Below are positions 7,189 to 34,495 of a stretch of 39,064 nucleotides of DNA, piece by piece; position 1 is the stretch's first letter, and every line of letters starts with the position of its first letter. Position numbers and translations under genes: made by a program. Under the pieces are notes generated by a model. It ran no database searches and had not been told where the DNA came from. It saw nothing but the letters and a program-made list of their open reading frames with translations. The stretch comes from a virus, in the IMG/VR virus record IMGVR_UViG_3300029951_000066, one strand, 5' to 3'.

Positions 7189-7246
7189 ATTGGATACTCC
7201 AGTGGGGTAATGACAACTTGACCACCGAAGTATAGGAAAGATTCCC

Positions 7247-7275
7247 TTGAGGTGTTCTTGGTGATACGCTAATAT
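7247..7275 (+). promoter_or_regulatory. Putative sigma70-type rightward promoter (TTGAGG-17 nt-TAATAT) for the cro-like gene
   Basis: -35/-10 hexamers with 17-nt spacer; AGAGGA RBS and ATG at 7300 follow. Confidence 0.5.
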
Positions 7276-7299
7276 CAACGAAACGGAAAGAGGACTGCT

Positions 7300-7530
7300 A
7301 TGACCCCCGCTGAGATTGTCATCAAAGAATTCAATGGAATCGCGCCACTCGCTAGAGCTCTGGGTATAAGCTCAGCAACGGTTTGCCGGTGGCGCAGGCC
7401 TCGCCCGAAAGATCCGCAAGGAGGGCAAGTGCCGGGCAAGCACCATCGTCGCATCATCGAAATTGCGAAAGATCGCAACTTACCGATTGTCTTAAAAGAC
7501 CTCTGGTATGGCCGAGAAGAGCAGGAATAG
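7300..7530 (+). CDS. Cro-like HTH DNA-binding protein
   Basis: 76-aa ORF; motif GIAPLARALGISSATVCRWR resembles Cro/YdaS-type HTH; divergent from the repressor. Confidence 0.7.
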   Translation: MTPAEIVIKEFNGIAPLARALGISSATVCRWRRPRPKDPQGGQVPGKHHRRIIEIAKDRNLPIVLKDLWYGREEQE

Positions 7531-7536
7531 AGCATC

Positions 7537-8352: not shown

Positions 8353-8962
8353 CCCCCTAGCGCCGAGCAATTGGCCGAAGGATGCTGCGCCGGAGCATTG
8401 GGTCACGGGTCTGTTCGAGAAAATGGCCAGGACGTGGGGCGCTCGTTTCCTCGACCAGTGGCGCGGGGTTGACCTCGAAGGCGTTAAGGTCGAGTGGGGC
8501 AGGGCACTCGCGAAACTATCGAACGCTGAGCTCAAAGCCGGGGTTGGCGCGCTTCTTACGCTGAAATTTCCGCCGACGCTTCCCGAGTTCTTCGGCCTGT
8601 GCAAGCAGACGCGGCTTTACGAATCTGCCAGCCATACGCTTCGGCTTGAAAGCGGAGGTCAATCGACGCCGAGTGTTGTTGATGCCCATATCGCGCAGAT
8701 TGGACCGCTGCTCAAGCGGTTGACCAACCCCGAGCCGACCGCTGAGTGGGCATTTAAGCTGCTTCGGCGTGGGATGTCGCTATCTGGCTTGCCACTCACC
8801 TATGAGGTCCGTCGCTGCGCTACTGACGCGATGCTTTCGAGCGCTGGACGCAAGGTGCTCGAGAACTGTGCGGATGAGGATCGCGAGGAATACACGAACC
8901 TGTACCAGATCGCCAGGGCTTTGAAACTGGCCACTGGGCAGAAGATTTGGGAGACACCATGA
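8321..8962 (+). CDS. Lambda P-like replication protein (helicase-loader family); start uncertain (8273 or 8321)
   Basis: Motif WGRALAKLS...LKAGVGALLTLKFPPTLPEFFGLCKQ parallels lambda P (PFLPSPGQFVAWCRE region). Confidence 0.55.
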   Translation: MNLPATSSTSNPLAPSNWPKDAAPEHWVTGLFEKMARTWGARFLDQWRGVDLEGVKVEWGRALAKLSNAELKAGVGALLTLKFPPTLPEFFGLCKQTRLYESASHTLRLESGGQSTPSVVDAHIAQIGPLLKRLTNPEPTAEWAFKLLRRGMSLSGLPLTYEVRRCATDAMLSSAGRKVLENCADEDREEYTNLYQIARALKLATGQKIWETP

Positions 8963-15546: not shown

Positions 15547-17723
15547 CCGACCAAGTAACACACGGCGCCAACGAGCCAACCCAGCGCACCGAAGAGGATC
15601 GCGAGTTTGCTGCGATCTCTGACGAAGAAATATGGCTCGAAGCAAAAGACCGCCTGCAGATCGCGGCTGAAGCTTATTCCGATAACCGCAAACGCGCTAA
15701 GGCTGCGATGCTGTTCCGTGACGGCGATCAGTGGGACCACGATACGGGCACGAGCGCTTCCGAGGATTCGCCTGAGCTGACCATCAACCTCACCGATGCA
15801 TTCGTGCGCCGCGTGGTGAACAACATCAAGCAGCAGCGTCCGCGCGGCAAGTGCCATCCGGTAGGCGATGGCGCCGATGTCGAGCTCGCCGAAATCATCA
15901 ACGGCATCGGTCGGCATGTTGAAACGCGTTCCGAAGCGTCGATCGCCTACGATCTGGCCGCCGAGCGTGCTGTAGATGCAGGCGAGGGCTACTTCCGGCT
16001 AGTCGCTGAGTATGTCGACCCGCGCTCGTTCCAGAAGGATCTACGCATCCTGCCGATCCGCAATATTTTCAGTGTGCACATGGACCCGAGCGCCATGATG
16101 CCTAGCGGCGCTGACCAGAACTGGTGCTTGATATCAGTCAAGATGAAGCGGCAGGAGTACCGCCGTCGCTACCCGAACGCGAAGAATGTGCAGTGGAACG
16201 ATATCGACCGCCAGCAGAGCCGCATCGACTGGGAAGACAAAGAGGAAATCCGGCTCGCCGAGTATTTCCGCATCCGTGAGAAGCCAGAGAAGCTCTATCA
16301 GATCGTCGACAAGACTGGCCAAGAGCATATGGTCTACCAGTCGGAGTTGAAGCGGATAACAGGCTCAGTGGCCTCGCTGAAAGATGCTGTCGATAGCTTA
16401 ACGCAGGCAGGCATTCGAATTGTCAACGAGCGTGACTCGGTAAAGCGCCAGGTGGAATGGTTCAGGCTCAATGGCCTGGTCGTAGTCGAGCGCCAGGAGT
16501 TGCCCGGAAGCATGATTCCGGTGTTTCGTGTCGATGGCAACACGATGGATGTGGACGGTGCGATCCGACGCAAGGGCATGGTCGATTCGATGATGGACCC
16601 TCAGCGCATGGTCAACTATGGCGAAGTGGCTAAGATCAAGCGTCTAGGGCTCGCGCCTAAAGCGCCGTGGGTCGCAGCAGAAGGGCAGCTTGACGGCCAC
16701 CCTGAGTGGGATAATGCAAACCAAAAGTCATACTCGGTACTGACATACAAGCCGATCGTCATCGAGACCGGCAGTCTGCCGATCATGATCCCAGCGCCAG
16801 CACGTCAGCCACCGGCACAAATCGAGGCGGGTTTCAGCGAGTTCGTGCAGGGTATGAGGTCTAACTTGGTCGCTGTGGCTGGCATGCCGAACGAGCCCGG
16901 ACAGGATCAGCAGGGTGTCGTTGTATCTGGCCGCGCCATAGACCGTCGTCAGTGGCTCTCAGATCAGTCGCACTTCCAGTATTACGACAACCTGACGCAG
17001 GCCATCGCCCAGTGCTGGCGCGTTATGGTCGAATGGATTCCGACTTACTACTCAGAACCAGGTCGCATGCAGCGCGTGATCGGCGAGGACTCGACGCCGC
17101 AGATGGTCAAGGTCAACGACAAAGAGACCGACGATGGCGGTATCGAGCGCGTCAAGAATGACCTCTCTATCGGCAAGTACGATGTCGTGATGGACACCGG
17201 TCCAGGCTATGAGACGAAACGCGAAGAGGGTGCATCGAATCTGGTCGAGATGATCAAGATCCCGCCGCTAGCAGAGATTATCGCCAAGACTGCCCCGGAT
17301 TTGGTATTCCGTTCGATAGACCATCCGTACATGCAGGAGTTGGCCGACCGGCTGATGGCCTCGAATCCCGAGGGCTTGAAGAAGATCATGGAGGGCCTAT
17401 CGAGCCGCGCCAAGAGCATCGTTCAGGCGCAGGCCAACCAGATCACGACGCTCCAGCAGCAGCTCCAGGCGGTGACAACGGAGATCAAGCAGGGATTGCA
17501 GAAGGCGCATATGGCGGCTGTCGTCAAAGCGCACGACACCGAGACACGTGCCGCTACGTCGCTGCAAGTCGAAGAAATCCGCGCCGGCGGCAAGATCATC
17601 GACTCAAACGCCGACCGTGGCCACGATGCGCGGATGCTCGAAAAACAGCTTTTGCATGATGCATCACAATCTGCGGCCGACCGAGCCGTTCAACCTCAGC
17701 AGCCCACCGGAGAGCAGCAATGA
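15543..17723 (+). CDS. Portal protein (large, about 726 aa)
   Basis: Size and position directly after the large terminase, ATGA-coupled; function inferred from synteny. Confidence 0.7.
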   Translation: MTDQVTHGANEPTQRTEEDREFAAISDEEIWLEAKDRLQIAAEAYSDNRKRAKAAMLFRDGDQWDHDTGTSASEDSPELTINLTDAFVRRVVNNIKQQRPRGKCHPVGDGADVELAEIINGIGRHVETRSEASIAYDLAAERAVDAGEGYFRLVAEYVDPRSFQKDLRILPIRNIFSVHMDPSAMMPSGADQNWCLISVKMKRQEYRRRYPNAKNVQWNDIDRQQSRIDWEDKEEIRLAEYFRIREKPEKLYQIVDKTGQEHMVYQSELKRITGSVASLKDAVDSLTQAGIRIVNERDSVKRQVEWFRLNGLVVVERQELPGSMIPVFRVDGNTMDVDGAIRRKGMVDSMMDPQRMVNYGEVAKIKRLGLAPKAPWVAAEGQLDGHPEWDNANQKSYSVLTYKPIVIETGSLPIMIPAPARQPPAQIEAGFSEFVQGMRSNLVAVAGMPNEPGQDQQGVVVSGRAIDRRQWLSDQSHFQYYDNLTQAIAQCWRVMVEWIPTYYSEPGRMQRVIGEDSTPQMVKVNDKETDDGGIERVKNDLSIGKYDVVMDTGPGYETKREEGASNLVEMIKIPPLAEIIAKTAPDLVFRSIDHPYMQELADRLMASNPEGLKKIMEGLSSRAKSIVQAQANQITTLQQQLQAVTTEIKQGLQKAHMAAVVKAHDTETRAATSLQVEEIRAGGKIIDSNADRGHDARMLEKQLLHDASQSAADRAVQPQQPTGEQQ

Positions 17724-17983
17724 ACTTTACGCATACGGCAAAACCAGTAAAGGTACGAGCTATCGAGATAGTTAGCATTGACAATGAGGCGCACAACAAC
17801 GGTTCATACGACGTGGCTCTCCGAGATGGTACAAACTCGATAATCACCGAAGAAATGACGGCTCGTTACTTTCCGATCGAAGGTGACTATCTGGTAACTC
17901 AGGAGGATGGGTATGTCTATATCAATCCGAAAGAGGTTTTCGAGCGTAAATATTCGCCACTCTTCGTTGGAGAATGCAAATGA
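17720..17983 (+). CDS. Hypothetical protein (87 aa)
   Basis: ORF with ATGA overlap with the portal gene. Confidence 0.5.
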   Translation: MNFTHTAKPVKVRAIEIVSIDNEAHNNGSYDVALRDGTNSIITEEMTARYFPIEGDYLVTQEDGYVYINPKEVFERKYSPLFVGECK

Positions 17984-20894: not shown

Positions 20895-20925
20895 TCGAGT
20901 CTCCTCGGGTGGCCTCGGGGCCTTG

Positions 20926-20955
20926 GGGCCGCCTTAGGGCGGCTCTTTTTCTTTC
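20926..20955 (+). terminator. Putative rho-independent terminator
   Basis: GC stem gccgcc/ggcggc with ttag loop followed by tctttttctttc. Confidence 0.45.
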
Positions 20956-20961
20956 GGATGA

Positions 20962-21300
20962 ATGGGTATGGCGACGATGCCGAATCTGGTTGGCCTGAAC
21001 TATCGAGCGGCTACCGTGGCGCTGATCGAGGCCAATATCGTTCCGAACGATGGCTCTGTGCCGAACGCTCAGACTTCTGCGCCGACAGTTGGATATTTCT
21101 CCCCTTGGCCGGTGGCCATCGTGTGGCAACCCGGAGCGCCGGTAGACGTCGTAACAGCGCAATCGCCAGCAGCAGGGCAACCGGTCACAGTGACCAACAC
21201 GACTCCGGTGAGCGAAGCCTACACGCCGCCAATAACGCTTACGGTCAATGCGCCGAAGATGGCCGTGTCCAGCCAGTTCACCGCGGGAGCTTTTTCATGA
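20962..21300 (+). CDS. Hypothetical virion-associated protein (112 aa)
   Basis: ORF whose stop overlaps the next ATG (ATGA). Confidence 0.5.
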   Translation: MGMATMPNLVGLNYRAATVALIEANIVPNDGSVPNAQTSAPTVGYFSPWPVAIVWQPGAPVDVVTAQSPAAGQPVTVTNTTPVSEAYTPPITLTVNAPKMAVSSQFTAGAFS

Positions 21301-22289
21301 CCATTGGAACCACTACGGCAGAGAGCCTCATCAAAGGGGCGCTGCGTCGCATCAATTCGTATCAGTCTGGCGAGCAGCTCGCGGAGTTCGACGCTGCGGA
21401 TTGTTTGGACACGCTGAACGATTTGCTCGACTCGCTCAGCCTGGATAAAGACCATATATTTGGCTCGCAGGAAAACATTCTTTCGTGGACGGCGCAGCAG
21501 CGCCTGTACAAGATAGGCAATCCGGTATGCACCCTGCTCGGACTGCAGCCTTTTACCGGGACTCTAACGGCAGGCTCACCGGTCATAGCCGGAATTACCA
21601 ACCTGCCGCCGCAGCTTGTCTCCGGACAGAATCCGGCTTTTCAGGTTGGCTCCGGCTCGATCCTGTCAGATGCGCAGGGACTGATTCCGGTCAATGCCAC
21701 AGTGCTGTCGGTAACGCCGACGACCATAACGATGTCTGCGCCGGCGATCGGAAACTCTGCCGGCCTGGATAGCATCACCTTCACAGTCCCCGGTGACTTG
21801 CCGATTCCGCGCCCGCTGCGCATCACGCACGGATTCACACGCTTCAATGCGCTCGATTTCACGCTTGACGTCTACGCTACGGAAACACAGTACACGCAAT
21901 TCCTATACAAGGCCCAGCCTGGGCCGTGGCCTACCGTGGCATGGTACAACAATACGTTCCCGTATGGCCTTCTGAATGTCTACCAGACCCCGGGTAACAG
22001 CACAGAGTGCCATCTGTTCACGGATACGATCCTACAAAATCTTACGTTGCAGCAAGTCCTTGTCATGCCTCAGGGCTACAGCCGAATGCTCAAGTGGCTG
22101 CTCGCGAAAGAAATCTGTGCGGAGTATGGCTTCCCGCTTACTCCGGCCATCACGTTGAATGCGAAGGAGGCGCGAGAGTTTGTAAAAGCGCTCAATGCGA
22201 AGCCGGCGAACGTGTCGAACTATGACCGTGAGCTGTCGCGAGGGAACAGGCCCGATGGCGGATGGGTGACTCATGGAGGTTACCGATAA
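21297..22289 (+). CDS. Putative head-tail adaptor or tail tube protein (330 aa)
   Basis: ORF with GGGAG RBS; position in structural module. Confidence 0.5.
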   Translation: MTIGTTTAESLIKGALRRINSYQSGEQLAEFDAADCLDTLNDLLDSLSLDKDHIFGSQENILSWTAQQRLYKIGNPVCTLLGLQPFTGTLTAGSPVIAGITNLPPQLVSGQNPAFQVGSGSILSDAQGLIPVNATVLSVTPTTITMSAPAIGNSAGLDSITFTVPGDLPIPRPLRITHGFTRFNALDFTLDVYATETQYTQFLYKAQPGPWPTVAWYNNTFPYGLLNVYQTPGNSTECHLFTDTILQNLTLQQVLVMPQGYSRMLKWLLAKEICAEYGFPLTPAITLNAKEAREFVKALNAKPANVSNYDRELSRGNRPDGGWVTHGGYR

Positions 22290-23929
22290 TGCCAGGCGGT
22301 AATAACGGACCTCTGAACCTGTTCGGTGATTTTGGCCTGGCTGGCGGTCAGGACAATGCGCCTAACCATCTGCAAGACGATCAGATGTGCATCAACATGT
22401 ACGCCGAGGTCGATCCGGGCAACTCCAAAGAGGTGCTTGGTCTGCTGGGTTGCCCAGGCCTAAACCAACTTGTCGCCGCACCTGTCGCCGGGGCCGGTGC
22501 GCCCGGATTCACTTCGACAATGACCGTGTGGCCCATGCCGTACTCCGGCCCTTCGCTGGAGGTGCGCGGGCTGTGGGAGCTTCCGGCCAATAACGACACG
22601 GTGCCGAACGGGACGGGTAGCACGGTCGATACGACAGCCCTAGCGGTCATTGGAAACACTTGCTATCTCGTCACTGCGACAATGACGGCGCCCACCGTGT
22701 TTCCCACCTTGTCTCTGACTTCGGTCGGTACGCTCCAAACCAGCACCGGCCCCGTGCACATCCGCGACAACAATACGGGCGGCGGCAACGCCGTGATCGT
22801 AGATGGCCCGAACGGTTATCTCTATGACATAGCGACGCAGGCCTTCACTCAGATCAACGATCCGAGTTTTCTAGGCTCAGATACGGTTGCCTATATCGAC
22901 GGTTGGTGGATCTTCAACAAGCCGGGCACACAGACGTTCTATTCGAACTCGCAGCCGTATAGCCTGACGTTCAATGCGCTGTTCTTCGCACTCAAGGATG
23001 CCGCGGCTGACAACCTCGTGGCCGTGATCGAGAACAAAGAGCTGCTGTGGTTGATAGGCGATAAGACGACAGAGATTTGGTACAACGCTGGCGGCGCGCC
23101 AGGTGGTGTAGGCGCGACCTTTGCCTTTCAGCGCATTGTCGGCACCCTTTTGCAGGTCGGTTGCAAGGCTAAACACTCGGTGGCTCGCTATGGGTCCCAG
23201 GGTCAGGAAGGGTTGATCTGGTTCGGGCGGTCGGAGCGCGGCGAGAATGTGATCGTGCGGACGCAAGGCTTTCTCGATCAGGTCATATCTACGCCTTCTT
23301 TCGGTGCGGAGGTGGCCACATACGCGACCACCGACGACGCAATCGGATACACCTATCAGGAAGACACGCATGAATTCTATGTGCTGATATTCCCGACCGC
23401 AGACACGTGCTGGTGCTATGACGGGCAATCAGGGCTGCTGCACAAGCGCCTTTCGTACGATCCGTATGCAAAGGAGTTCCATCGCCACCGTTCGAACGCA
23501 TTCATGAACTTCCAGGGTATGCGCGTCGTTGGCGACTATCAAAACGGGGCTCTGTACCAACTTACGAGAGCCGCCTATACCGATGCTGGCTGGCCACTGC
23601 TGGCAAAGCGACGCGCACCACATATTTGGGACGGCGGGCAACGCGGACGTGTTTTCATGCAAAGCCTACAACTCGATTTTAACGTTGGGGTCGGCAACCC
23701 AAGCGGCATGGGTACGAATCCGCGCTGCGGACTCTCGATCTCTCGCGATGGCGGCAGGACATTCGGCGATCGTATGTATGCGCCGATGGGTGCAATAGGT
23801 GAGTATCGCACACGCACGATGTGGCGCAAGCTAGGCTGGGGCCGGGATAATGTGGTCGATCTGGAAGTGATCGATCCAGTGAATCGCGACCTTGTTGGTG
23901 CAACGATGAAAGCATTCAGTTCAGCATGA
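22289..23929 (+). CDS. Putative tail structural protein (546 aa)
   Basis: ORF with GGAGG RBS at the internal ATG (MPGGNNGP); large beta-rich protein in the tail region. Confidence 0.55.
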   Translation: MPGGNNGPLNLFGDFGLAGGQDNAPNHLQDDQMCINMYAEVDPGNSKEVLGLLGCPGLNQLVAAPVAGAGAPGFTSTMTVWPMPYSGPSLEVRGLWELPANNDTVPNGTGSTVDTTALAVIGNTCYLVTATMTAPTVFPTLSLTSVGTLQTSTGPVHIRDNNTGGGNAVIVDGPNGYLYDIATQAFTQINDPSFLGSDTVAYIDGWWIFNKPGTQTFYSNSQPYSLTFNALFFALKDAAADNLVAVIENKELLWLIGDKTTEIWYNAGGAPGGVGATFAFQRIVGTLLQVGCKAKHSVARYGSQGQEGLIWFGRSERGENVIVRTQGFLDQVISTPSFGAEVATYATTDDAIGYTYQEDTHEFYVLIFPTADTCWCYDGQSGLLHKRLSYDPYAKEFHRHRSNAFMNFQGMRVVGDYQNGALYQLTRAAYTDAGWPLLAKRRAPHIWDGGQRGRVFMQSLQLDFNVGVGNPSGMGTNPRCGLSISRDGGRTFGDRMYAPMGAIGEYRTRTMWRKLGWGRDNVVDLEVIDPVNRDLVGATMKAFSSA

Positions 23930-24729
23930 GCGGTCTGCCTACTCTCATTCCTCCGCAAAGCGTCCCTATCTCGGTCGACGGCCAGGGTGCACCTGCATTT
24001 TTGAACATCAACTGGTATCTGTTCCTCTATAACCTAGGTGTACAGGTGCTGGGGACTGGATCCGGGGGCGGCGGCACTACACCTGTTTCTCCGTTCGACG
24101 CACTGGATGCGGCCAACTTATTCGCGCAAGGTGCGGATGTCCCGCAGGCATACCGAGGACTGGAAAATCTGGCCACGCTTATCGCTGGTGGCGCTCTTGT
24201 AGACCCCTCGCCACGTGCTCAGCCAGCACAGAATATCACTGTCGGTGCATCTCCGTTCACCTATACCGCGCTTCATGACGGAACCCTGTCCGTGAGCAAT
24301 GGCGTCGCGTCATCGATCGTAATTATCCGACAGGGAATTGTTGTTCCTACCGGAATAACGCTTTCCAGCGCAGGTGTTATCGGCGCTCTGACTGATGAGA
24401 AGGGGTCTGGTGGCCTGCCTGGTTTTGTGGCTGGCACCGATTTCACTCCCGGCACGACTACCGCTCTCACTCTTTCCCAGGCCTATGGCAGCGCATCCAA
24501 TCTCTGGATAGCCTTTGATGCGGCTGAGCAGGGGCCAAATACTTATTCATTGAGCGGCACCACGCTGACGTTTAACGCGCCGATTCCAGTCGGAACCGCG
24601 AATGTATTCGTGAAAGGTGCCGTTCCCTCGACGCTCAGTTCGCTTGGTGGGCTAATTCCATTGCGGCGCTTGGATCAAGTTCGTATCACGTATACCGGAT
24701 TGCCTCTCGTCGTATTTCTGCCGGACTAG
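23926..24729 (+). CDS. Tail fiber-like protein (267 aa) sharing an N-terminal anchor module with the tailspike
   Basis: Segment SNLWIAFDAAEQGPNTYSLSGTTLTFNAPIPVGTANVFVKGA is homologous to tailspike residues around 32150-32340. Confidence 0.6.
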   Translation: MSGLPTLIPPQSVPISVDGQGAPAFLNINWYLFLYNLGVQVLGTGSGGGGTTPVSPFDALDAANLFAQGADVPQAYRGLENLATLIAGGALVDPSPRAQPAQNITVGASPFTYTALHDGTLSVSNGVASSIVIIRQGIVVPTGITLSSAGVIGALTDEKGSGGLPGFVAGTDFTPGTTTALTLSQAYGSASNLWIAFDAAEQGPNTYSLSGTTLTFNAPIPVGTANVFVKGAVPSTLSSLGGLIPLRRLDQVRITYTGLPLVVFLPD

Positions 24730-24737
24730 GAGACCTC

Positions 24738-25073
24738 ATGACCACGATTACGCCGGTTCAAATTGTCGCGCCACAGCAACTAGCGGCGGTCGACACGTCC
24801 GTATATACTTCCGGTACGCAGACATCGACCCAAATTGGTCGCGCGGTGTTCACCAACACCACGGCGAGTGCAGTCACAATCACTGCCGGTATCTCTACCG
24901 GTGGAGCACTCGGAGCAACATCAATGATCTCTGCACGCACTATTGCCCCCGGCGAATCCTACGTATCGCCTGAACTCGCGGGCGCTGTCATCCCTGCAGG
25001 CTCACAGCTACGCGCCTTCTCTAGCGCCGCTACGTCTGTGTCATTCACCGCTTCCGGCGTCCTGATCCAGTAG
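24738..25073 (+). CDS. Hypothetical small beta-rich protein (111 aa)
   Basis: ORF with AGGAGA RBS. Confidence 0.5.
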   Translation: MTTITPVQIVAPQQLAAVDTSVYTSGTQTSTQIGRAVFTNTTASAVTITAGISTGGALGATSMISARTIAPGESYVSPELAGAVIPAGSQLRAFSSAATSVSFTASGVLIQ

Positions 25074-25079
25074 GCGATC

Positions 25080-25658
25080 ATGCGGAACTTTCAAAAAATA
25101 TTCGAAGGTGTTACGGTCGCGCCGCTTCTAAATGCGCTGTACCGAAAACCCGAACTATGGAAAGCCGATGACTTCCTTAGAAAGTTTCCACAAGGCCCGT
25201 TTGGCGAGACAGATACGATCTATCTTCGGTTCCAAGACAAATTGCAGGTTATTGATGATTCGGAAGTTAAGGCTTACGAAGAAAATCGCCTAGCAGGCCA
25301 TGACCTCCACGAATGTCCGTGGCGACCAGAAATGAATGAGTTGCCGGAGGCGCGGACACATATCAGCGCTCTAATGAGCGGTATGGGAGCAACTCGGCTA
25401 GGGCGCTGCATGATTAACCGCATCGCTCCAGGCGGGCATATTTTTCCTCATGCAGATACGAAATGGCACGCGGACTATTGGGACCGCTATCACCTAGTTC
25501 TGCAGTCGGAGCCGGGTAACGTTTTCCGATGTGGCAACGAGCAAGTGCACATGCGGCCTGGCGAACTATGGTGGTTCGAAAATGCTATTGAGCATGAGGT
25601 CACGAATAACAGCGCAAATGACCGCATTCACATGATCATCGATCTGAGGTTTTCGTGA
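25080..25658 (+). CDS. Aspartyl/asparaginyl beta-hydroxylase-family 2OG-Fe(II) oxygenase (cupin fold)
   Basis: C-terminal DRYHLVLQSEPGNVFRCGNEQVHMRPGELWWFENAIEHEVTNNSANDRIHMIIDL aligns by eye with the ASPH catalytic core (R.HL.L...G...RC.NE...G...F...EHEV...S..R...D); HxD-like PHAD upstream. Confidence 0.75.
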   Translation: MRNFQKIFEGVTVAPLLNALYRKPELWKADDFLRKFPQGPFGETDTIYLRFQDKLQVIDDSEVKAYEENRLAGHDLHECPWRPEMNELPEARTHISALMSGMGATRLGRCMINRIAPGGHIFPHADTKWHADYWDRYHLVLQSEPGNVFRCGNEQVHMRPGELWWFENAIEHEVTNNSANDRIHMIIDLRFS

Positions 25659-26122
25659 TCACCTTTTCCATCGAGCGGTTCTCCGACGTGTACGGCGAGA
25701 TGAAGCCGTTGCTAGAGGAGCACTATGTGGAAATTTCCACCCACGTGGCGCATGGCGTTCCGCTAAAGCCTAGAACGCAGGTATACGAGGATCGCCAAGC
25801 TGATGGTTCATTGATGATTGTGGTTGGTCGCGAAGCCGGTGATATCGTCTCGTACTTCTTTTGCTTTATCGCTTCCGCGCTCCACTATGAAACCTGCCTG
25901 ACCTGCTCGCCAGACATTTTCTATGTGAAGCCAGATCGACGCAAGGGTCGCTTGGGCATCCGGATGTTTCGATTCGTCGAGGATGAACTTAGACGCCGCG
26001 GCGTAGTGCGGTGGGCGGTGGGTAGCAAGATAGATCACGATGCATCTGCGCTATTCAAGTATCTGGGCTTTGAACCCGTCGAGACCACGCATGAGAAGTG
26101 GTTAGGAGAAAAATCATGGTAG
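25655..26122 (+). CDS. GNAT-family N-acetyltransferase (GTG start)
   Basis: Motif RRKGRLGIRMFRFVEDELRRRGV...ALFKYLGFEPVE (GNAT motif A-like); GTGA overlap with the hydroxylase gene. Confidence 0.7.
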   Translation: MITFSIERFSDVYGEMKPLLEEHYVEISTHVAHGVPLKPRTQVYEDRQADGSLMIVVGREAGDIVSYFFCFIASALHYETCLTCSPDIFYVKPDRRKGRLGIRMFRFVEDELRRRGVVRWAVGSKIDHDASALFKYLGFEPVETTHEKWLGEKSW

Positions 26123-26916: not shown

Positions 26917-28413
26917 ATGCCCGACTTCGGCTCCCCAGTCGCTACCGGTATAACACCGCCGAACCCTAACCAGCTTACACAATCGTTGTCCGGGATCTTG
27001 AGTCTCAAGAATCAGCAGCAACAGTTGCAGGTCGGGCAAGCGCAAGCGCAGCAGGCTCAGCAGCAGATGCAGGAGCGGCAGCTATTGCAGCAAACGTTAG
27101 CAAGTGGCACGGCGCCAGATGGAACCTCAGTAAAAGACTCTAGCGGCCAGATTGATCCGGTTGCGATGTCGAAATTTGCCAATACATCGCTGCCTCTGAC
27201 GGGGCAAGGTGTGCTGCAGTCGATCATCCAAACGCAGGATAATCACATCAAACTGAATGACTCAATCCGCGGACTGAGCCAGAACGTGAACAATGATCTA
27301 TCCGGAATCATTCGCTCAGGCGTCGGCTCGCCCGATCCTGTGGCGACGGTTGGGCCGGCTCTGGATGCGTATGCGCAGCAGAATCCAACTGCTGCTAGTG
27401 CGGTCTCACGCGTCAAAGCACTATCGCAAAACCTCAATCCGCAGATGCCTATGGATCAGCGGAATATGGCAATCCAGCGTCTGGCTCAGCAATTCCAGCC
27501 TGCGGCTACTACGGTGGCGGAACAAACACCGGGCATACGTACTACAACCGGCCCAGGCGGCGGCGTCCAGGCAGTACAGACTAATCCGCTTTCCGCTGTC
27601 CCAATGGGCGCGGTCGGACCAGAAACGGCGCAGGGCATCCCGCTGGGTGAGCGTTCGCAAGTCGGCACCAATGCACTGACCGGTGGCCCCACTGTGGTCA
27701 ACAAGAATGGACAGGGGCAAGTTACCGGGATCACGAATGCGCCGACGCAGAACGTCTACGTCCCGCAACCCGGAGACGCACAAGCGATTCCCGGACTCTC
27801 TGCCGAGCGCGAGGCGGCGCGCAATGCATACACAAGCGCTCCTTCTGCTCACACCAACAATCAACTGGTCCTGCAGAATATCGATAACGTTGCGGCAACC
27901 GGCGCTGTCGGCCAGAAGGCACGCGCCGCCCTCAACGTCTTTGGGCTTGGCCAAGATACCGATGCGGCAACTGCATATGACTTGGTGGGTAAGGGCTTGG
28001 AGCGCTCCGCATTGCAGGCAGCACAGTCGATGGGGCCGAATACAAATGCTGGTCTAGACGCGCAGATCAAGGCTAACGGTTCGCTTGGCTATACGCCCGC
28101 TGCTATCAAAGAAGTGACGAAGCTGAACGATGCTCTTACGACTGGCGTACAGGCGTATCAGCCTGGCCTAGAACGCGCCATCGCTGCGAATCCGTCTGCT
28201 GGCGTTATCGCCAAGCGCCAGTTCGACCAGCAATGGGGCGCGAACTTCGACCCGAACATCTTCAAGTACTACAACGCGATCAAGGCTGGTGACACTGGCG
28301 AGCAGCAGGCTATCGTTAAGCAGTTGGGCGGCCTGAACTCAAAAGGCTACAACGACATGATGCAGAAGGCTCAGAACCTCCAGAAACTGTCTAATACTGG
28401 CGGTTCTCAGTAA
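26917..28413 (+). CDS. Gln-rich putative internal virion protein (498 aa)
   Basis: ORF with AAGGAGA RBS. Confidence 0.55.
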   Translation: MPDFGSPVATGITPPNPNQLTQSLSGILSLKNQQQQLQVGQAQAQQAQQQMQERQLLQQTLASGTAPDGTSVKDSSGQIDPVAMSKFANTSLPLTGQGVLQSIIQTQDNHIKLNDSIRGLSQNVNNDLSGIIRSGVGSPDPVATVGPALDAYAQQNPTAASAVSRVKALSQNLNPQMPMDQRNMAIQRLAQQFQPAATTVAEQTPGIRTTTGPGGGVQAVQTNPLSAVPMGAVGPETAQGIPLGERSQVGTNALTGGPTVVNKNGQGQVTGITNAPTQNVYVPQPGDAQAIPGLSAEREAARNAYTSAPSAHTNNQLVLQNIDNVAATGAVGQKARAALNVFGLGQDTDAATAYDLVGKGLERSALQAAQSMGPNTNAGLDAQIKANGSLGYTPAAIKEVTKLNDALTTGVQAYQPGLERAIAANPSAGVIAKRQFDQQWGANFDPNIFKYYNAIKAGDTGEQQAIVKQLGGLNSKGYNDMMQKAQNLQKLSNTGGSQ

Positions 28414-31046
28414 TGGACGATCTGCTCGCCACGATCCAAAGCGGAAACCCGAGCGCGTCGCCGGCCGGACCAGCGCCGGCTGCGTCGTCGGCTAGTGGCG
28501 CATTCAGTCCCTCCCAGAGCTATGGCACGCCAGCAAAGCTGCTCGACAATCTCGCGTGCGAGGAAAGCAGCGGCGACCAGTATGCTATTAACCCGAAAAC
28601 CCAGGCCATGGGTCCGTACCAATTCACCCCATCCACTGTAGCCATGCTGCAAAAGCAGGGCGTCAAGTTCAACCCATTCGACCCGCAAGAAGCGCGTAAT
28701 GCTGCCGACTACTATTTGCAGCAACTCAAAGGGCAGAACGGCGGCAGCTATGAAGGCGCTTTGAAGGCCTATGGCGGGTTCAAGACCGCCGACCCTACAC
28801 AGTATGTCGCGAAGGCGATGAGCGGTGTAACGGGCCAGCAAAGCGCGCCGGCACCGACGATTCCAGGGCAGTCGAACTCCGGTGCTCAGCCACAGAGCGA
28901 CTCGGGTCCAATGTCGGATCTATTCTCGACGCTCCAGCAGGGTCCATCGCAACCTTCGAAGGTTGCGCAACCTGCCGCGCCCGCACCTGATAAGCAGCCT
29001 CCGGCGCAAGGCGGATTTCTCGCTGGCCTAGGCCGGTCGACGGCTGGACTCGCAGATACAGTGCTAGGCGCTCCTGGCGCTGCTGCTGGCGCCGCTGACT
29101 ACGCTGTTCGTCGTGCATTTGGACAGAATCCCCAGCAAGCGCAGCAGAGCTCCGCAGGCGACTTCGGCGGATCAGTCCATCCTGTCGGCAACGCTTTCGG
29201 CGTGACCAACACGCCCGAGTACCAGAATGAAGCATCACAGCAAGCTACGCAGGCCGTAGGCAATGTGGTCGGGAAAGGCGTTAATGCAGTGGCCAGTGCA
29301 ACCGGTCTACCGCCGCAAGACGTTTCCAATATGGTGGGGTCTGCATCGATGTTGGTCCCCGGTGCGGCTCACCTCGCTGCTCCGCTAGCGAAAGGCGTGG
29401 CGAACGAAATCGGCTACGCCGCTTCTGCTGCTGGCCAAGGCATAAAGGCTGCGGCTGGCGCTGTCGGAGATGCAGCGTCTGATGCCGCGAAAGCAGTTGG
29501 GCAGACAGCGGGCGACCTCAAGAACGCGACCAGCGTGGCGACTGGGATCAAGACGCCTCAACAAGTCGCTACCGAGCAAGCTGCTGGGCAAGCATCTATA
29601 CCTGTTGTAGGCGCTGGTGCTGCAGGCCGTCCGAGTATGGGCGCGGCGGGAACCTCGTTCGCGCAGCAGGCTGCGGCCGAGGGCGTTCCCGATGCGCTTG
29701 TCGGGAAAATTGCCGCGGCGGAAAAGAGTGGCACCTTGAACCCCGTCTCAGCAGGCCGGCACATCGAGGCCGGTTCTTTGCCAGTTCCGATCGATCTGAC
29801 TGCCGGACAAGCGAGTAGCGACGTGCGTTTACTCTCCGACGAATTGAATGCTCGAGGAAAGAACCCTGAACTGGCGAACCGCTTCAATATGCAGAATGGC
29901 CAGATCGCTGACAACCTCAGTGCGATCCGGGATCAAGTCTCGCCAAACGTAAATGTTCCCTCTGGCGCGCCGACGGGACAAGCGCTTGTTGATGCATACA
30001 AGCAGATGGACGCGCCGATCACGCAGCAGATTTCTGATCTGTATTCCAAGGCACGCGGCGCCGACGGCACACCCGCTTTGGTCAACGCTGCGCCGCAGAT
30101 GAAAGATTTCGCTTCGCAGATCGGTCCCACACGGTTCAATGCGCTGCCATCTAACGTTCAACAGATCTTCCGCGACGCAAGCGCCAATCAGGTATCTCTC
30201 CCGGCTGGCTTCGAGCAGAACGGTTCGTCAGTGCGTCCGATGAATGTCGGCGACTTGATGGATATCGATAAAACGCTCTCGGGAGCCATGCGCGGCGCCA
30301 CGGATGGTTCAGTTCGGCACGACATCGGCGCACTGCGCGATAGCGTCGTGAATTCTCAGCTTGACCCTTCGGCGGCGGGATCGGACGCCTTCGCAGCGTA
30401 CAAGACCGCGCAGGCGAGTGCGCGAGCGCGTTTCCAAGCGATGGACTCGGACCCAGCCTACAAAGCCGCAGTGAACGATATAGCGCCCGCGGGAGAGCCT
30501 TCTGCGCTGGCCGATGACTTCGTGCGCAAGTACGTGGCTGGCGGGAAGACTTCAAACGTACAGAACATGATGCAGAACCTGTCGAATGATCCGGTCAATT
30601 CGGAGCTCGTCGCTTCCGGGTTGATGGACCATATCAGGAGCCAGGCCGGTGTCGACCTACGCACTGGGTCGGGGAATATCAGTCAAGCGGGCCTGAATAA
30701 ATCCCTTCAAAACTTGGGCGATAAGACGCGCATTGTGCTCGGTCCAGAGGCATCGCAGACGGTCGAGAAACTCGGCAATGTTGCGCGCTACACGCAGGAG
30801 CAACCGCGAGGCAGCTATGTCAATAACAGCAACACATTTGTTGCGTCGGTCGCAAACGCTGCCAAGTCATCGGCAGAGGGTGCGGCTAACGTTGCGGCTC
30901 ATGGGATTCCCGTTGGAACATGGACCCGGCAGGCACTCGCAAGGCGTGCTGATGCAAAATCCGTGGCCAGCTCGCTTGAGCCGGGTGCCGGACTTAAGTC
31001 GGTTCCGCTCAATCAATTACTCAATAAAACAAAGGGGAATCCTTAA
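28413..31046 (+). CDS. Internal virion protein with N-terminal lytic transglycosylase (SLT) domain
   Basis: Motif CEESSGDQYAINPKTQAMGPYQFTPST (E-S catalytic, AxGxxQF); 877 aa; TAATG overlap with the upstream gene. Confidence 0.75.
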   Translation: MDDLLATIQSGNPSASPAGPAPAASSASGAFSPSQSYGTPAKLLDNLACEESSGDQYAINPKTQAMGPYQFTPSTVAMLQKQGVKFNPFDPQEARNAADYYLQQLKGQNGGSYEGALKAYGGFKTADPTQYVAKAMSGVTGQQSAPAPTIPGQSNSGAQPQSDSGPMSDLFSTLQQGPSQPSKVAQPAAPAPDKQPPAQGGFLAGLGRSTAGLADTVLGAPGAAAGAADYAVRRAFGQNPQQAQQSSAGDFGGSVHPVGNAFGVTNTPEYQNEASQQATQAVGNVVGKGVNAVASATGLPPQDVSNMVGSASMLVPGAAHLAAPLAKGVANEIGYAASAAGQGIKAAAGAVGDAASDAAKAVGQTAGDLKNATSVATGIKTPQQVATEQAAGQASIPVVGAGAAGRPSMGAAGTSFAQQAAAEGVPDALVGKIAAAEKSGTLNPVSAGRHIEAGSLPVPIDLTAGQASSDVRLLSDELNARGKNPELANRFNMQNGQIADNLSAIRDQVSPNVNVPSGAPTGQALVDAYKQMDAPITQQISDLYSKARGADGTPALVNAAPQMKDFASQIGPTRFNALPSNVQQIFRDASANQVSLPAGFEQNGSSVRPMNVGDLMDIDKTLSGAMRGATDGSVRHDIGALRDSVVNSQLDPSAAGSDAFAAYKTAQASARARFQAMDSDPAYKAAVNDIAPAGEPSALADDFVRKYVAGGKTSNVQNMMQNLSNDPVNSELVASGLMDHIRSQAGVDLRTGSGNISQAGLNKSLQNLGDKTRIVLGPEASQTVEKLGNVARYTQEQPRGSYVNNSNTFVASVANAAKSSAEGAANVAAHGIPVGTWTRQALARRADAKSVASSLEPGAGLKSVPLNQLLNKTKGNP

Positions 31047-31054
31047 TGGTTTCC

Positions 31055-31567
31055 CTATGCCTTTGTAAAGCGGCCCGTTCTTTCGTCTCTTCCGCCGCGC
31101 TTATTAGCGAGTTGCTCTTTTCTGGTCGCCCAACGGAAATTATTCGGCGCGTATGGCCCATCATTATCGACGCGATCAATTTCGAGATTCCCGGGCCTTT
31201 CTCCGACGTCAGCGAGAAAATATGGGAAATTCAGCCATCTATCACAGACGACTATTCCCCTGCCACCATAGCAATGGAAGGCTGGATTTTCCGGATTGTT
31301 GCAGCGATCTATCATTGCTCGCCATACCCAATAAAGAGGCGTATTAGATTTTCCGCTCCGAATATACTTCCTTCCTGTCGGAGTAACACATCCGCAAGAT
31401 ATGAGCACGCTTTGCCGGAAACCACTGATGATTTTTTCGTTTCCACAAGAGCATTTACAGAGCCACTGCGTCGACTTCCCATCCCCCGATCCCCTAGGAA
31501 TTCTTCGAATAGCGGTCAGTTCGCCATGAACTTCGCCCGGTTGGATCCGTGTATTTTTATTCGGCAT
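31055..31567 (-). CDS. HNH-type homing endonuclease-like protein, antisense within the virion operon
   Basis: AGGAG RBS; Cys-rich CKCSCGN...CGC plus motif WVWRAMIDRCNNPENPAFHCYGGRGIVVCDRW common in phage HNH/AP2-type proteins. Confidence 0.6.
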   Translation of the reverse strand: MPNKNTRIQPGEVHGELTAIRRIPRGSGDGKSTQWLCKCSCGNEKIISGFRQSVLISCGCVTPTGRKYIRSGKSNTPLYWVWRAMIDRCNNPENPAFHCYGGRGIVVCDRWLNFPYFLADVGERPGNLEIDRVDNDGPYAPNNFRWATRKEQLANKRGGRDERTGRFTKA

Positions 31568-31607
31568 CTACCGCTCCTAACCATAAATACTGTTTCTGGA
31601 TAATATC

Positions 31608-33881
31608 ATGGGAACGTCTGTCGTTCAGGCACCTGACGCAATATTGCAATTTTTCAATAATGCGGGGCTACCAAATGTCGGTGGAAGTCTGCTAACCCAG
31701 GTTGGCGGCGTCAACTATCCAACATTCGAGGATGCTGCTGGTAGCACTCCGCTGCCTAATCCGATCCCTTTGAACTCCCGTGGCGAGATTTCCAATTCGT
31801 CCGGTGTATCGAGTCAGCTTTTCCTTTTCGATGCGGTCGTTTATACCTTCACGCTATTCGATGCACACGGAAATCAAATTTGGGTTGCCGAAAATGTCAC
31901 AAGCGGCGGGGCAGAAACAGGCAGCATGACCGACGAAGGCCCATTCCTGGCCGGACCAACATTTACCGGTTCCATCACTGGAACTGCATTGACTATCAGC
32001 GGAGTGACCGGATCGGTTGCCATTGGTCAGACGTTGTTCGGCGCTGGTGTAACCGCAGGAACGACGATCACGGGGGGGGCCGGTACCTCATGGACCGTCA
32101 GCACACCGCAAACCGTCGCCTCTGAGCCAATGTCCTCGGCAGGCACAGATCAGTTTGCGCCTGGATTCAGCACGGTCCTGACCCTGGTCGGTTTCTATGG
32201 CAGCAAGTCGAATCTATGGATCCAGTTCGATGCTGCCTCGCAGGGAGAGGATACGTTTGGCCTCAATAATTTCACGTTGACCTTCAATGCTCCTATCCCC
32301 ATTGGTGTTCAAGCTATCTACATAAAAGGAGGCACTACAGTCAGTATTGGTGCACCCGGAACAGGGACAGTTACAGATTCCACCGTAGCCGCCAATGCAG
32401 GGATCGAGGCATCCAAGCTTTCCTATACTGCGCCCTACACTGGCGCCGTCGCTGAAACTGTCCAGGCACGGCTTTCAAATTCGGTCTCGGTAAAGGATTT
32501 CGGGGCAACCGGCAATGGTACAACTGACGATACGACAGCATTCCAGAGCGCCATCAACTCGGGCGCCACTCGGATCAGCGTGCCGGCTGGCACCTATCTG
32601 ATTACCAAGACGCTCAACTTCACGAATCGTGGGAGCGTGCCTTTAGTCATAAGTGGCGACGGGGGATACTTAGAACAAAATACGGGGACAACGCTTCTAT
32701 TCCAGACGGGCACATGGATGGCCGATATGACTGGCTGTCAATTCCTACATCTAGAGCATATGCGCTGGTTTTCCAATGGCGCCGCGACTGGTTTTTCGAC
32801 GCTAGGCTGTCTGTACGCGAGGTCAACTGTAGTCGGCTTCGCCATATTCAACTCGATGTTCAAGATGATCATTGAGTTGCCGTCAAGCTCAGGAAGTAGC
32901 GCGGGGTCTATCGCGCTAGCAGACAACTGCATGGAAAATTGTCTGTTCGATATGTGCTGGTTTCTTTCCGACACTCCTTATGCTTCCACATTGGCGAATG
33001 AGTTAAGTTTCGTGTCAACGTACGCGACAGTCGCTAACACTACGTTCAGCAATACCGACAAAACGTTTAGGCAATGTATTTTCTTGGCTAGGAACGGAAC
33101 GGGCTGCTTCTTACAGGGAGTGGCCGATACCACATTTGATCAGTGCAATTGGTCTCTAAATGGCGCTCTAGGCGGCGCCATAGCCGCAGCCATGACGATT
33201 TTGTCATCGGCGGATGGTTACCAGAACTGCTCAAACATACGATTCACTGGGGATTTTGAATCATTCCCAGCAATCGCAGCACTTACCGGAAATACAGAAG
33301 GCCTCGTATTCGACTGCACCTCGGCGGGCCTGACAGGTTCGGCATATATCCTAAACACATCGGGCACCACTCACGATGGCATGAAGGTAAAGGTTAATAC
33401 GCTGTCCGGAGCGCAATTGAAGATGATCCTCACTAGCTCCGGATCATCGATAGTGAACAATGCCGAAGTCCATATGAATAATGGGCAGACACTACTAGAT
33501 GGGGCACTCACGATCAATGGCGGGACGATTTACGGCGGAGCAAATGATCTTTCCAATTCTGGCGTTCTGTCGATCGCTCCAGCATCAAGTTTTATCGCAA
33601 CTTACGAGAACTCAAAGCTGACTGGGAGCGTGTCTTGGGCGCCAGGTTCTGTGCCCGGCAATAGTACCGTTCTGTTTCCCGGAACAGTTACAGTGCCTGG
33701 CGCGGTAGGAGGGTCTTCCGTAGCAGTAAAGGTGCCATATGCGATACCATTTTGTATCGCTAGTGGCTTCGTAACGACCAGCAATCAGGTTGAGCTTATG
33801 CTTTCCAATGTCAACGGCGCTGCATCCGCAGCTTTCGGTACTGGCACTTGGATAGTGGAAGTGAAGAAGGTCTACGCTTGA
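31608..33881 (+). CDS. Tailspike with pectate-lyase-fold (right-handed beta-helix) depolymerase-like domain
   Basis: Motif VKDFGATGNGTTDDTTAFQSAINSGATRISVPAGTYLI typical of Pectate_lyase_3/GH28-type tailspikes; N-terminal module shared with the 23926 protein. Confidence 0.8.
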   Translation: MGTSVVQAPDAILQFFNNAGLPNVGGSLLTQVGGVNYPTFEDAAGSTPLPNPIPLNSRGEISNSSGVSSQLFLFDAVVYTFTLFDAHGNQIWVAENVTSGGAETGSMTDEGPFLAGPTFTGSITGTALTISGVTGSVAIGQTLFGAGVTAGTTITGGAGTSWTVSTPQTVASEPMSSAGTDQFAPGFSTVLTLVGFYGSKSNLWIQFDAASQGEDTFGLNNFTLTFNAPIPIGVQAIYIKGGTTVSIGAPGTGTVTDSTVAANAGIEASKLSYTAPYTGAVAETVQARLSNSVSVKDFGATGNGTTDDTTAFQSAINSGATRISVPAGTYLITKTLNFTNRGSVPLVISGDGGYLEQNTGTTLLFQTGTWMADMTGCQFLHLEHMRWFSNGAATGFSTLGCLYARSTVVGFAIFNSMFKMIIELPSSSGSSAGSIALADNCMENCLFDMCWFLSDTPYASTLANELSFVSTYATVANTTFSNTDKTFRQCIFLARNGTGCFLQGVADTTFDQCNWSLNGALGGAIAAAMTILSSADGYQNCSNIRFTGDFESFPAIAALTGNTEGLVFDCTSAGLTGSAYILNTSGTTHDGMKVKVNTLSGAQLKMILTSSGSSIVNNAEVHMNNGQTLLDGALTINGGTIYGGANDLSNSGVLSIAPASSFIATYENSKLTGSVSWAPGSVPGNSTVLFPGTVTVPGAVGGSSVAVKVPYAIPFCIASGFVTTSNQVELMLSNVNGAASAAFGTGTWIVEVKKVYA

Positions 33882-33883
33882 GG

Positions 33884-34495
33884 ATGAAAATGAAACGACT
33901 ATTTATCTCACTGTTCAGTGCAGCATCGATCTGTGCACATGCTGCCACAAATCTCCCGATCCAACTGATAAGCCCGGTTGGTTCGACAAGTGGACAGGCA
34001 ATAGTTTCAACCGGAGCTTCGAGCGCGCCGGCTTGGACTGCGGTAGTTGGCGCATCATCTCCGACAATCACGACTCCGAATATTATCGGTGTAACTAATA
34101 CATCAAATGCGGCAGCTGGAAGCGTAGGAGAGGTCATAACAGCACAGAGTGGGGCAGTTTCTCTCTCGACATCGACATCGACAAATATCATAAGCATTCC
34201 GCTAACTCCTGGCGATTGGGATGTTCGCGGGAATGTTGAGTATGATCCGGCTGGCACGACGATTTTTGTGCAGTCTGTATCTGGAATTTCTGTTACTTCC
34301 GCCACTCTTCCAAGTTCACCATTGAAGGCCGTGAGTAATTACCCAAGCATAGCTGGCAATCAGCAGTCTTCTTTTTTGCCAATTACCCGCGTCAACATTT
34401 CTTCTCCAACTACAGTTTTTGTAGTTGGATTTGCAGGGTTTACGGTTAGCACTTTGACTGCAACAGCATACATTGCTGCTCGACGTATTCGCTAA
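33884..34495 (+). CDS. Secreted Ser/Thr-rich protein with N-terminal signal peptide
   Basis: N-terminus MKMKRLFISLFSAASICAHAATN (K-rich n-region, hydrophobic core, AHA cleavage-like site); lower GC than the genome average. Confidence 0.55.
   Translation: MKMKRLFISLFSAASICAHAATNLPIQLISPVGSTSGQAIVSTGASSAPAWTAVVGASSPTITTPNIIGVTNTSNAAAGSVGEVITAQSGAVSLSTSTSTNIISIPLTPGDWDVRGNVEYDPAGTTIFVQSVSGISVTSATLPSSPLKAVSNYPSIAGNQQSSFLPITRVNISSPTTVFVVGFAGFTVSTLTATAYIAARRIR

Follow-up and report, generated by a model that had tools for sequence, protein, structure and literature searches.

A Predicted Hydroxylase Paired with a GNAT-Fold Protein in the IVP-A Slot of a P22-Type Podophage

Among the late genes of the viral record IMGVR_UViG_3300029951_000066 from IMG/VR, a stretch of 39,064 nucleotides (nt) that we call the window, two adjoining genes for a hydroxylase and a GNAT acetyltransferase lie between small tail-associated genes and the genes for the ejection proteins, and the question raised by this locus is what two enzymes are doing there. 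An earlier note, made from the sequence alone, had read the pair as non-structural cargo of low GC content, acquired horizontally. Its description of the two open reading frames (ORFs), of the GTGA overlap that couples their translation, and of their position is confirmed by the sequence (25080–25658 and 25655–26122), while its reading of them as cargo is not supported by the comparisons reported below. The GNAT is an already described, conserved kind of assembly-module gene, and the hydroxylase has become its fixed partner across a large clade, made up of phages and prophages from Burkholderiales, Pseudomonas, Xanthomonadales, Acinetobacter, and others. This hydroxylase partner is widespread and appears to be undescribed. 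On balance we lean toward the explanation that an IVP-A-type GNAT (IVP, internal virion protein) and its hydroxylase partner act jointly and late, most plausibly on ejection or virion proteins.

The pair stands where the operon for the ejection (internal virion) proteins begins, in a podophage of the P22 type. The order in the window (gp10-like gene, 267-amino-acid [aa] gene, 111-aa gene, hydroxylase, GNAT, gp7 homolog, gp20 slot, and gp16 slot with an SLT domain) is syntenic with that of P22 (10, 26, 14, 7, 20, 16), and contigs identical or related to the window carry P22_portal, P22_CoatProtein, and Phage_stabilise (the P22 gp10 tail hub) domains. On the related contigs the order continues through two small genes, the hydroxylase, the GNAT, and three genes of ejection-protein size, the last with an SLT or glucosaminidase domain, to a tailspike. 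The GNAT occupies the slot of P22 gene 14 (gp14, 151 aa) exactly, directly upstream of the gp7 homolog, whose family (phrog_598) also takes in P22 gp7 itself (2e-95).

This slot has a published history. Hardies et al. 2016 (PMC4819975) call it 'IVP-A' and describe it as a small, acetyltransferase-like, non-virion morphogenesis gene that stands before IVP-B across podoviruses; the class includes the T7 IVP-A, "required for morphogenesis" and "not retained in the virion," and the P22 and epsilon15 homologs are 'very standard' and in syntenic position (PMC4819975). It has also been reported that a GNAT adjoining the IVP genes of cobaviruses equates with T7 gp13 (PMC6775973), and the Pfam label for PF11090 is 'probable scaffold protein Gp13.' The window's GNAT resembles the podovirus IVP-A proteins (T7 gp13, P22 gp14) in its small size (138–155 aa in this group), its place directly upstream of the first ejection gene and downstream of tail hub or tube genes, and the acetyltransferase (GNAT) fold common among them. 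The hidden Markov model (HMM) family to which it belongs is found in that slot in T7-style as well as P22-style modules: the member P0420 (E=1.5e-25) has the T7-style order capsid, 258, 980, 258, GNAT, 196, 738 (sizes in aa) without a hydroxylase, and in MW202796 the GNAT stands alone right after a 'stabilization protein.' It is by the position and size of the gene, the fold of its product, and the HHpred analysis already published that we place the GNAT in the IVP-A class.

The hydroxylase sets this system apart. No 2-oxoglutarate (2OG) oxygenase partner is reported for T7, P22, epsilon15, or the RIO-1 group, whereas the GNAT of the window is obligately paired and, in one lineage, fused. A literature search found nothing relevant on a phage beta-hydroxylase beside internal virion proteins, on an acetyltransferase identity of P22 gene 14, on DUF2824, or on Pseudomonas phage PfAn1. 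The earlier note had known of no described system with this pairing; that remark appears to hold for the hydroxylase, and it fails for the GNAT, which fills a slot already described for a conserved morphogenesis gene of podoviruses.

Linkage of the two genes is tight. They are adjacent and co-oriented in all 151 IMG/VR loci that were fetched with both sides visible, and they mostly abut or overlap, with translation usually coupled. Relatives of the hydroxylase are encoded on 483 stretches of metagenomic viral contigs and in 4 of the 50,697 GenBank phage records, two of which (PfAn1 and Limnohabitans phage DC33) have an adjoining GNAT. In bacterial genomes a GNAT adjoins the hydroxylase in most loci at 41% identity or more; the prophage hosts are Paraburkholderia, Cupriavidus, Ralstonia, Caballeronia, Janthinobacterium, Massilia, Achromobacter, Variovorax, Rhodanobacter, Dokdonella, Acinetobacter, and Edaphobacter. 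Distant homologs of the hydroxylase (30%–34% identity) in Alphaproteobacteria and Spirochaetes lie in non-phage contexts, near porins or a histidine kinase, and are uninformative on function. As an aside on classification, DC33 (PQ492659; 39 kb) is placed by GenBank taxonomy in the Inoviridae, the filamentous single-stranded DNA phages; this looks wrong, since among its gene products are a large terminase (phrog_2, 4e-35) and a protein of 567 aa that matches phrog_332 (head-tail adaptor) over its full length (E=1.5e-179), both typical of tailed phages.

In one lineage the two genes have become one. The product is a 368-aa protein in which residues 1–186 are hydroxylase (E=4e-71) and residues 220–367 are GNAT, joined by a linker of ~35 residues. 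It is identical in three independent assemblies, and here too its gene comes first in a series, followed by genes of 272, 489, and 428 aa; the phage also has a Phage_stabilise gene. By the Rosetta-stone argument, such a natural fusion suggests that the two enzymes work together.

The assignment of the first protein to the aspartyl/asparaginyl beta-hydroxylase family, as the earlier note had it, is borne out by a match to Pfam PF05118 (Asp_Arg_Hydrox; 64.9 bits at E=9.6e-18, where the cutoff is 22.6 bits) and by the predicted fold. The AlphaFold2 (AF2) model (mean predicted local distance difference test [pLDDT] score 90.4) is a double-stranded beta-helix, or cupin-like, fold, and its best Foldseek matches in the PDB are an L-proline cis-4-hydroxylase (4p7w; E=3e-10, TM-score 0.68), a nucleoside-antibiotic hydroxylase (7v4f), and AspH; Foldseek probability is 1.0 for these three and for 1e5s. 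Residues H124, D126, H172, and R182 are invariant across 28 homologs (down to 51% identity), as is an N-terminal block made up of W27 and P37-Q-G-P-F41. The first four form a predicted metal triad, H124-x-D126...H172, and a predicted 2OG-binding arginine, R182. The family profile matches human AspH at E=8e-10, and bacterial proline hydroxylases as well; H124, H172, and R182 align with AspH H679, H725, and R735, and D126 falls opposite AspH G681. The likeness to the AspH family thus extends to the double-stranded beta-helix fold, the Fe(II) ligands, and the 2OG-binding arginine. The phage protein differs from AspH in being a minimal stand-alone enzyme (192 aa) without tetratricopeptide repeat or membrane domains, and in having the canonical H-x-D where AspH has H-x-G; it differs from its PF05118 relatives (AspH and the bacterial proline hydroxylases) in its family-specific invariant N-terminal region and in being phage-encoded within a virion assembly operon. 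Neither it nor the GNAT contains a transmembrane or membrane-like segment (maximum 19-residue Kyte-Doolittle hydropathy of the hydroxylase, 0.67). From these features we predict a soluble Fe(II)/2OG oxygenase that belongs to the Asp/Asn beta-hydroxylase family and has its catalytic site intact.

The GNAT call of the earlier note also holds. The match to PF00583 is marginal (21.0 bits, cutoff 20.7), that to phrog_1249 'acetyltransferase' is clear (E=1.9e-12), and homologs of the protein match PF00583 or PF13508. For the AF2 model (pLDDT 76.5, predicted TM-score 0.75), the best 50 PDB matches by Foldseek are all GNATs, among them YncA, RimI, PA4866, and phosphinothricin N-acetyltransferase, and phage GNATs such as those of VpV262 and CRP-4 are among the matches listed for BFVD. 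The closest solved folds, of the RimI/YncA/PA4866 type (E about 1e-5, TM-score 0.55–0.64), are likewise single-domain proteins of ~150–170 aa; they share only 13%–20% identity with the phage GNAT, which differs in its non-canonical acetyl-CoA loop and its phage morphogenesis context. An exhaustive profile search with the GNAT family returned 3,894 representatives (50% clustering) at E≤1e-3 and 1,657 at E≤1e-10, nearly all of them single-domain proteins of ~150 aa. Twelve polar residues are conserved at 85% or more in 131 representatives at no more than 50% mutual identity (E7, H23, E26, Y44, R59, Y67, H77, Y78, D87, R96, K125, and E143), and together they look like an active or ligand-binding site. 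The GTG start of the gene is supported by the homolog alignment, which begins MITF. In a fusion of another kind (P0437 and P0464; 277–279 aa; a 24-member cluster that occurs on many contigs of 35–63 kb), an extra N-terminal domain of ~130 aa, for which no family was identified, is fused to the same type of GNAT.

The explanation that we favor takes the observed families, folds, active-site residues, slot and synteny, linkage, coupling, fusion, and absence of cargo signatures as its starting point. The two enzymes would be late products, formed in stoichiometric amounts with the ejection proteins. In the cytoplasm they would share a substrate and work on it jointly, hydroxylating a side chain at the expense of O2 and 2OG and transferring an acetyl group from acetyl-CoA; the most plausible substrate is one or several of the ejection or virion proteins expressed alongside them. 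The modification may be a step in procapsid loading (core assembly on the portal) or in ejection competence. A virion-protein target would fit the reports that IVP-A serves in morphogenesis and is no part of the virion. Of the possibilities listed in the earlier note, the post-translational modification of virion proteins expressed with the pair remains the most plausible function. That virion or ejection proteins specifically are the substrates is a more tentative proposal; equally tentative is the suggestion that the pair could be a dedicated two-enzyme modification system, with hydroxylation and acetylation both required for procapsid loading or for later unfolding and ejection.

Several findings weigh against this explanation, and they concern in turn the ancestry of the GNAT, its catalytic residues, the presumed substrate, and the gene context. 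Homology of the GNAT to P22 gp14 (PF11039, DUF2824) was not reproduced: BLASTP gave no match, hhalign with shallow profiles gave a probability of 0.4%, and hhalign of a profile with 4.8 effective sequences against DUF2824 gave a colinear alignment of 115 columns at P=0.044 and a probability of 1.2%. T7 gp13 (PF11090), compared as a single sequence, gave nothing against the GNAT. The acetyl-CoA loop between beta4 and alpha3 is non-canonical, reading R96-x-G98-x-x-G101 in place of Q/R-x-x-G-x-G/A, although the loop is located correctly and R96 is 96% conserved, and the position of the usual catalytic tyrosine is held by Phe134. The gp7 homolog has a single Lys/Arg in 263 aa and would be a poor target for lysine acetylation. 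The nearest solved structures include enzymes that act on free amino acids (L-proline cis-4-hydroxylase on the one hand, and the YncA, PA4866, and phosphinothricin N-acetyltransferases on the other), so a small-molecule substrate is equally compatible with the folds. Finally, not every relative uses this slot: in DC33 the pair stands between terL and portal; five Burkholderiaceae prophages (L196, L199, L202, L203, and L206) have the two genes 3.6–4 kb apart, the hydroxylase being followed by an HNH endonuclease and the GNAT lying on the other strand, upstream of portal and large terminase (L199, 7941–13078); and a Variovorax element (L209) has a hydroxylase (44% identity) without a GNAT. All of the contexts but the Variovorax one are head-morphogenesis modules.

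Other results bear on the ancestry of P22 gp14 itself. A DUF2824 profile searched against the PDB made a weak match to the GNAT PseH (E=0.12), the only match that was not an artifact, those to 'Cake' being repeat artifacts. Pfam scans of 17 DUF2824 members gave no secondary GNAT match, P22 gp14 was not among the matches listed in the BFVD fold search with the GNAT model, and gp14 belongs to phrog_651 'head morphogenesis.' With regard to the Variovorax element (Variovorax robiniae NZ_JBBKZS010000005, 7077–8645), its hydroxylase gene is preceded by one for a SET-domain protein (PF00856, E=7.6e-9), and the element also carries genes for a primase and a helicase. SET-domain proteins are a family of protein lysine methyltransferases, so that a second protein-modifying enzyme may be present here; this is a single case, and we do not use it as evidence.

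How far could the pair instead serve a small-molecule pathway? On this account it would hydroxylate and N-acetylate a free amino acid or other metabolite, making or detoxifying a compound useful late, and the operon would supply timing only. The structural neighbors fit: the best match of the hydroxylase is the L-proline/L-pipecolate cis-4-hydroxylase (4p7w/4p7x), followed by 7v4f, and the GNAT is matched best by amino-acid N-acetyltransferases (YncA, PA4866, phosphinothricin N-acetyltransferase, and ArsN). Fusion and tight coupling are typical features of enzymes that catalyze successive steps of a pathway, and DC33 and the prophages of the L199 group hold the genes away from the ejection genes. 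However, enzymes that modify proteins are structural relatives just as close (the RimI-type acetyltransferases of protein N-termini, and AspH, which hydroxylates proteins), no transporter or other pathway gene stands beside the pair, and the GNAT family fills the IVP-A slot on its own in T7-style and P22-style podophages (PMC4819975), which would be odd for a metabolic enzyme. We regard this pathway as unlikely.

A second alternative keeps the GNAT in morphogenesis and takes away its chemistry: the protein would be a scaffold or chaperone for loading of the ejection proteins, with the hydroxylase acting independently, on a host protein or as an oxygen- or 2OG-dependent switch. The scaffold name given to PF11090, the altered acetyl-CoA loop, and the phenylalanine at the catalytic position all agree with this. 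So does the existence of loci with either gene alone: GNAT-only loci occur, and the hydroxylase is found by itself in L209 and in MW202665, where it lies directly ahead of a 'DNA ejection' gene. Conservation of the twelve polar or charged residues at the level seen in the 131 representatives is, however, typical of an active or ligand site, and both the fusion and the unbroken adjacency in the IMG/VR loci argue for joint function. A non-enzymatic GNAT seems to us rather improbable.

Horizontal acquisition had been inferred from base composition. The earlier note had put the pair at about 50% GC and its flanks at about 60%, which overstates the difference; the computed values are 51.5% for the pair and 57.4% and 58.6% for the flanks, with a window mean of 55.9% (standard deviation 3.1% in 1043-nt windows), and 10.4% of equal-sized windows are at or below the GC content of the pair. 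At third codon positions the pair (0.573 ± 0.026) is indistinguishable from the four flanking genes (0.580). The whole difference resides at second positions (0.387 in the pair and 0.521 in the flanking genes), and it arises because of amino-acid composition, the flanking proteins being rich in Ala, Gly, Ser, and Thr and the enzymes not. Across 84 non-redundant related loci the GC content of the pair tracks that of the flanks (r=0.89, slope 0.88), averaging 2.1 points lower and being lower in 90% of loci; the offset of the window itself (–6.5 points) is near the extreme of this distribution. Hence the dip is a systematic compositional offset and not a mark of foreign origin, and horizontal transfer inferred from GC was rejected on the codon-position analysis and the 84-locus comparison. 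Several other regions of the window fall below the pair in GC content. Within the late region, low GC is clearest at 31046–34495 (50.7%); this segment holds a 185-aa gene, a 757-aa pectate-lyase-type tailspike, and a 215-aa tail-fiber-like gene (GC 47.5%, third-position GC 0.366); it is a better candidate than the pair for recent exchange of a receptor-binding module.

Two further expectations of the cargo model were examined and rejected. Independent expression of the pair is contradicted by the junctions, which overlap or leave a 6-nt gap (that between the stop of the 111-aa gene and the start of the hydroxylase), and by the flanks, where neither a promoter-like nor a terminator-like sequence encloses the pair and such sites are no more numerous than in shuffled sequence. 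Sporadic presence, as of a moron, is contradicted by the occurrence of both genes in every one of the 151 loci, among surrounding structural genes that vary far more.

The unequal conservation of the pair and its neighbors calls for separate comment. In 31 non-redundant loci with a hydroxylase 71%–79% identical to that of the window, the GNAT has a median identity of 67% and the gp10-like and gp7-like proteins about 34%–37%, a comparison with a built-in bias, as the loci were selected for their resemblance to the pair. For a Cupriavidus prophage the identities are 74% for the hydroxylase, 68% for the GNAT, 29% for portal, and 34% for coat. This shows that the pair is either far more constrained than its neighbors or swapped among mosaic P22-like modules, always into the same slot. 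The pattern is one of phage–phage mosaicism of a core module and not of cargo acquired from a host. Within the pair itself, comparison of loci L094–L167 with L014–L093 reveals some GNATs that are ~64%–73% identical to that of the window while their hydroxylases are only 41%–50% identical to its hydroxylase. The two genes have thus had partly separate histories, which suggests recombination between them or the existence of two hydroxylase subtypes.

What remains of the cargo interpretation is a horizontally acquired moron that modifies the host envelope (lipid A or lipopolysaccharide, in the manner of LpxO) for lysogenic conversion or receptor masking. PF05118 does contain LpxO, relatives of the pair occur as prophages in Burkholderia, Cupriavidus, and Ralstonia, the high conservation of the pair is compatible with exchange between phages, and the GC offset of the window is at the extreme of its family. 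LpxO is membrane-anchored. The hydroxylase has no membrane segment and shares with LpxO only the Pfam family: against the 297-position NCBIfam equivalog model NF033391 it scores 14.6 bits (E=0.013) where the cutoff is 500, and identity as LpxO was rejected on this score and the lack of a transmembrane segment; nor is there a signal-like segment in either enzyme. The equal third-position GC, the coupling within a late operon without a promoter or terminator of its own, the invariant presence in the clade, and the known morphogenesis slot of the GNAT also speak against a moron, and this proposal of the earlier note is largely refuted and highly improbable. Neither gene should be annotated as auxiliary metabolic or lysogenic-conversion cargo. 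Anti-defense or host-takeover enzymes that merely happen to be encoded in a late operon are just as improbable: phage GNATs and 2OG oxygenases do serve several counter-defense and host-modification contexts, and a Cas-associated 2OG model of PADLOC was matched very weakly (E=0.036), but no PADLOC model was matched significantly, late expression would be too late to counter defenses at entry unless the enzymes were packaged, IVP-A proteins are reported not to be retained in virions (PMC4819975), and strict conservation of the slot points to morphogenesis.

If joint modification of virion proteins by the hydroxylase and the GNAT is in fact what the pair does, the IVP-A proteins (T7 gp13, P22 gp14, and the GNAT family, with its more than 1,600 clusters) would have to be seen as enzymes and not as passive scaffolds or chaperones, and protein hydroxylation would join the short list of phage-encoded virion modifications. 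The role of T7 gp13 and P22 gp14 is a long-standing loose end, as these proteins are needed for infectious particles and are not virion components. An enzyme-like GNAT welded to an intact hydroxylase suggests that ejection-protein assembly can involve covalent chemistry, and the pair offers a concrete, testable handle on the function of IVP-A proteins.

The features of the locus are collected in Table 1.

Table 1. Genes and junctions around the hydroxylase–GNAT pair, in window coordinates
Feature	Position	Strand	Basis
gp10-like tail hub (P22 gp10; Pfam 'Phage_stabilise')	22262..23929	+	phrog_578, 3.4e-79; PF11134 on identical product
267-aa protein rich in Gly, Leu, Ala, and Thr, tail-fiber-like; slot of P22 gp26 (tail needle)	23926..24729	+	ORF list
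111-aa protein rich in Thr, Ala, and Ser; role unassigned	24738..25073	+	ORF list; composition
Hydroxylase, 192 aa, ATG start	25080..25658	+	ORF; PF05118 match
GNAT, 155 aa, GTG start	25655..26122	+	ORF; PF00583, phrog_1249; IVP-A slot
GTGA start/stop overlap coupling hydroxylase and GNAT	25655..25658	+	Sequence
P22 gp7 homolog (IVP-B, first ejection protein), 263 aa	26116..26907	+	phrog_598 'DNA ejection', E=3.9e-22
498-aa protein; slot of P22 gp20 (ejection protein)	26917..28413	+	Synteny with P22 order 14-7-20-16
877-aa protein; slot of P22 gp16; N-terminal lytic transglycosylase domain	28413..31046	+	PF01464 SLT on identical product

Upstream of the pair, the 267-aa protein found no match in family scans (Pfam, PHROGs), and 206 nt of its gene are 70% identical to the 'tail spike protein' gene of Xanthomonas phage PBR31. 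Counterparts of the 111-aa protein in the relatives have 112–113 aa and the same position. Downstream, the ATG of the gp7 homolog, a start placed from gene calls on identical contigs and from the sequence, overlaps the stop of the GNAT by 7 nt (ATGGTAG) and is preceded by an AGGAG Shine-Dalgarno sequence at 26103–26107. The composition of this protein is extreme (58 Ala, 39 Gly, 28 Ser, 25 Gln, 23 Asn, and six Asp/Glu), and its N-terminus is hydrophobic; according to the annotation of P22 gp7, host OpdA cleaves off the N-terminal 20 residues of that protein. The PHROG scan of the 498-aa protein gave no family match. Residues 35–122 of the 877-aa protein match phrog_669, and the equivalent gene in one relative (L008) has weak SLT and Phage_P22_gp16 Pfam matches.

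A few observations from the rest of the window may be added. The ten proteins that were scanned, early and late ones, included no integrase. An 87-aa ORF between portal and scaffold (17720–17983) has the lowest GC content of the called genes (44.7%, third-position GC 0.477) and appears among the gene calls of identical contigs as well. A strong terminator-like hairpin (20920–20946; a 9-bp stem with seven GC pairs, then a T-run) directly follows the coat gene and a gene of 135 aa, and it recalls the stem-loop annotated after the P22 coat gene. The mechanically listed 443-aa ORF at 20958–22289 probably comprises two genes of ~110 and ~330 aa, the latter (21297–22289) belonging to phrog_12985; the split is taken from gene calls on contigs with an identical locus. 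On the minus strand at 113–2029, a 637-aa protein ends in a widely shuffled domain, its C-terminal ~110 residues matching ten function-unassigned PHROGs (E down to 1.5e-37).

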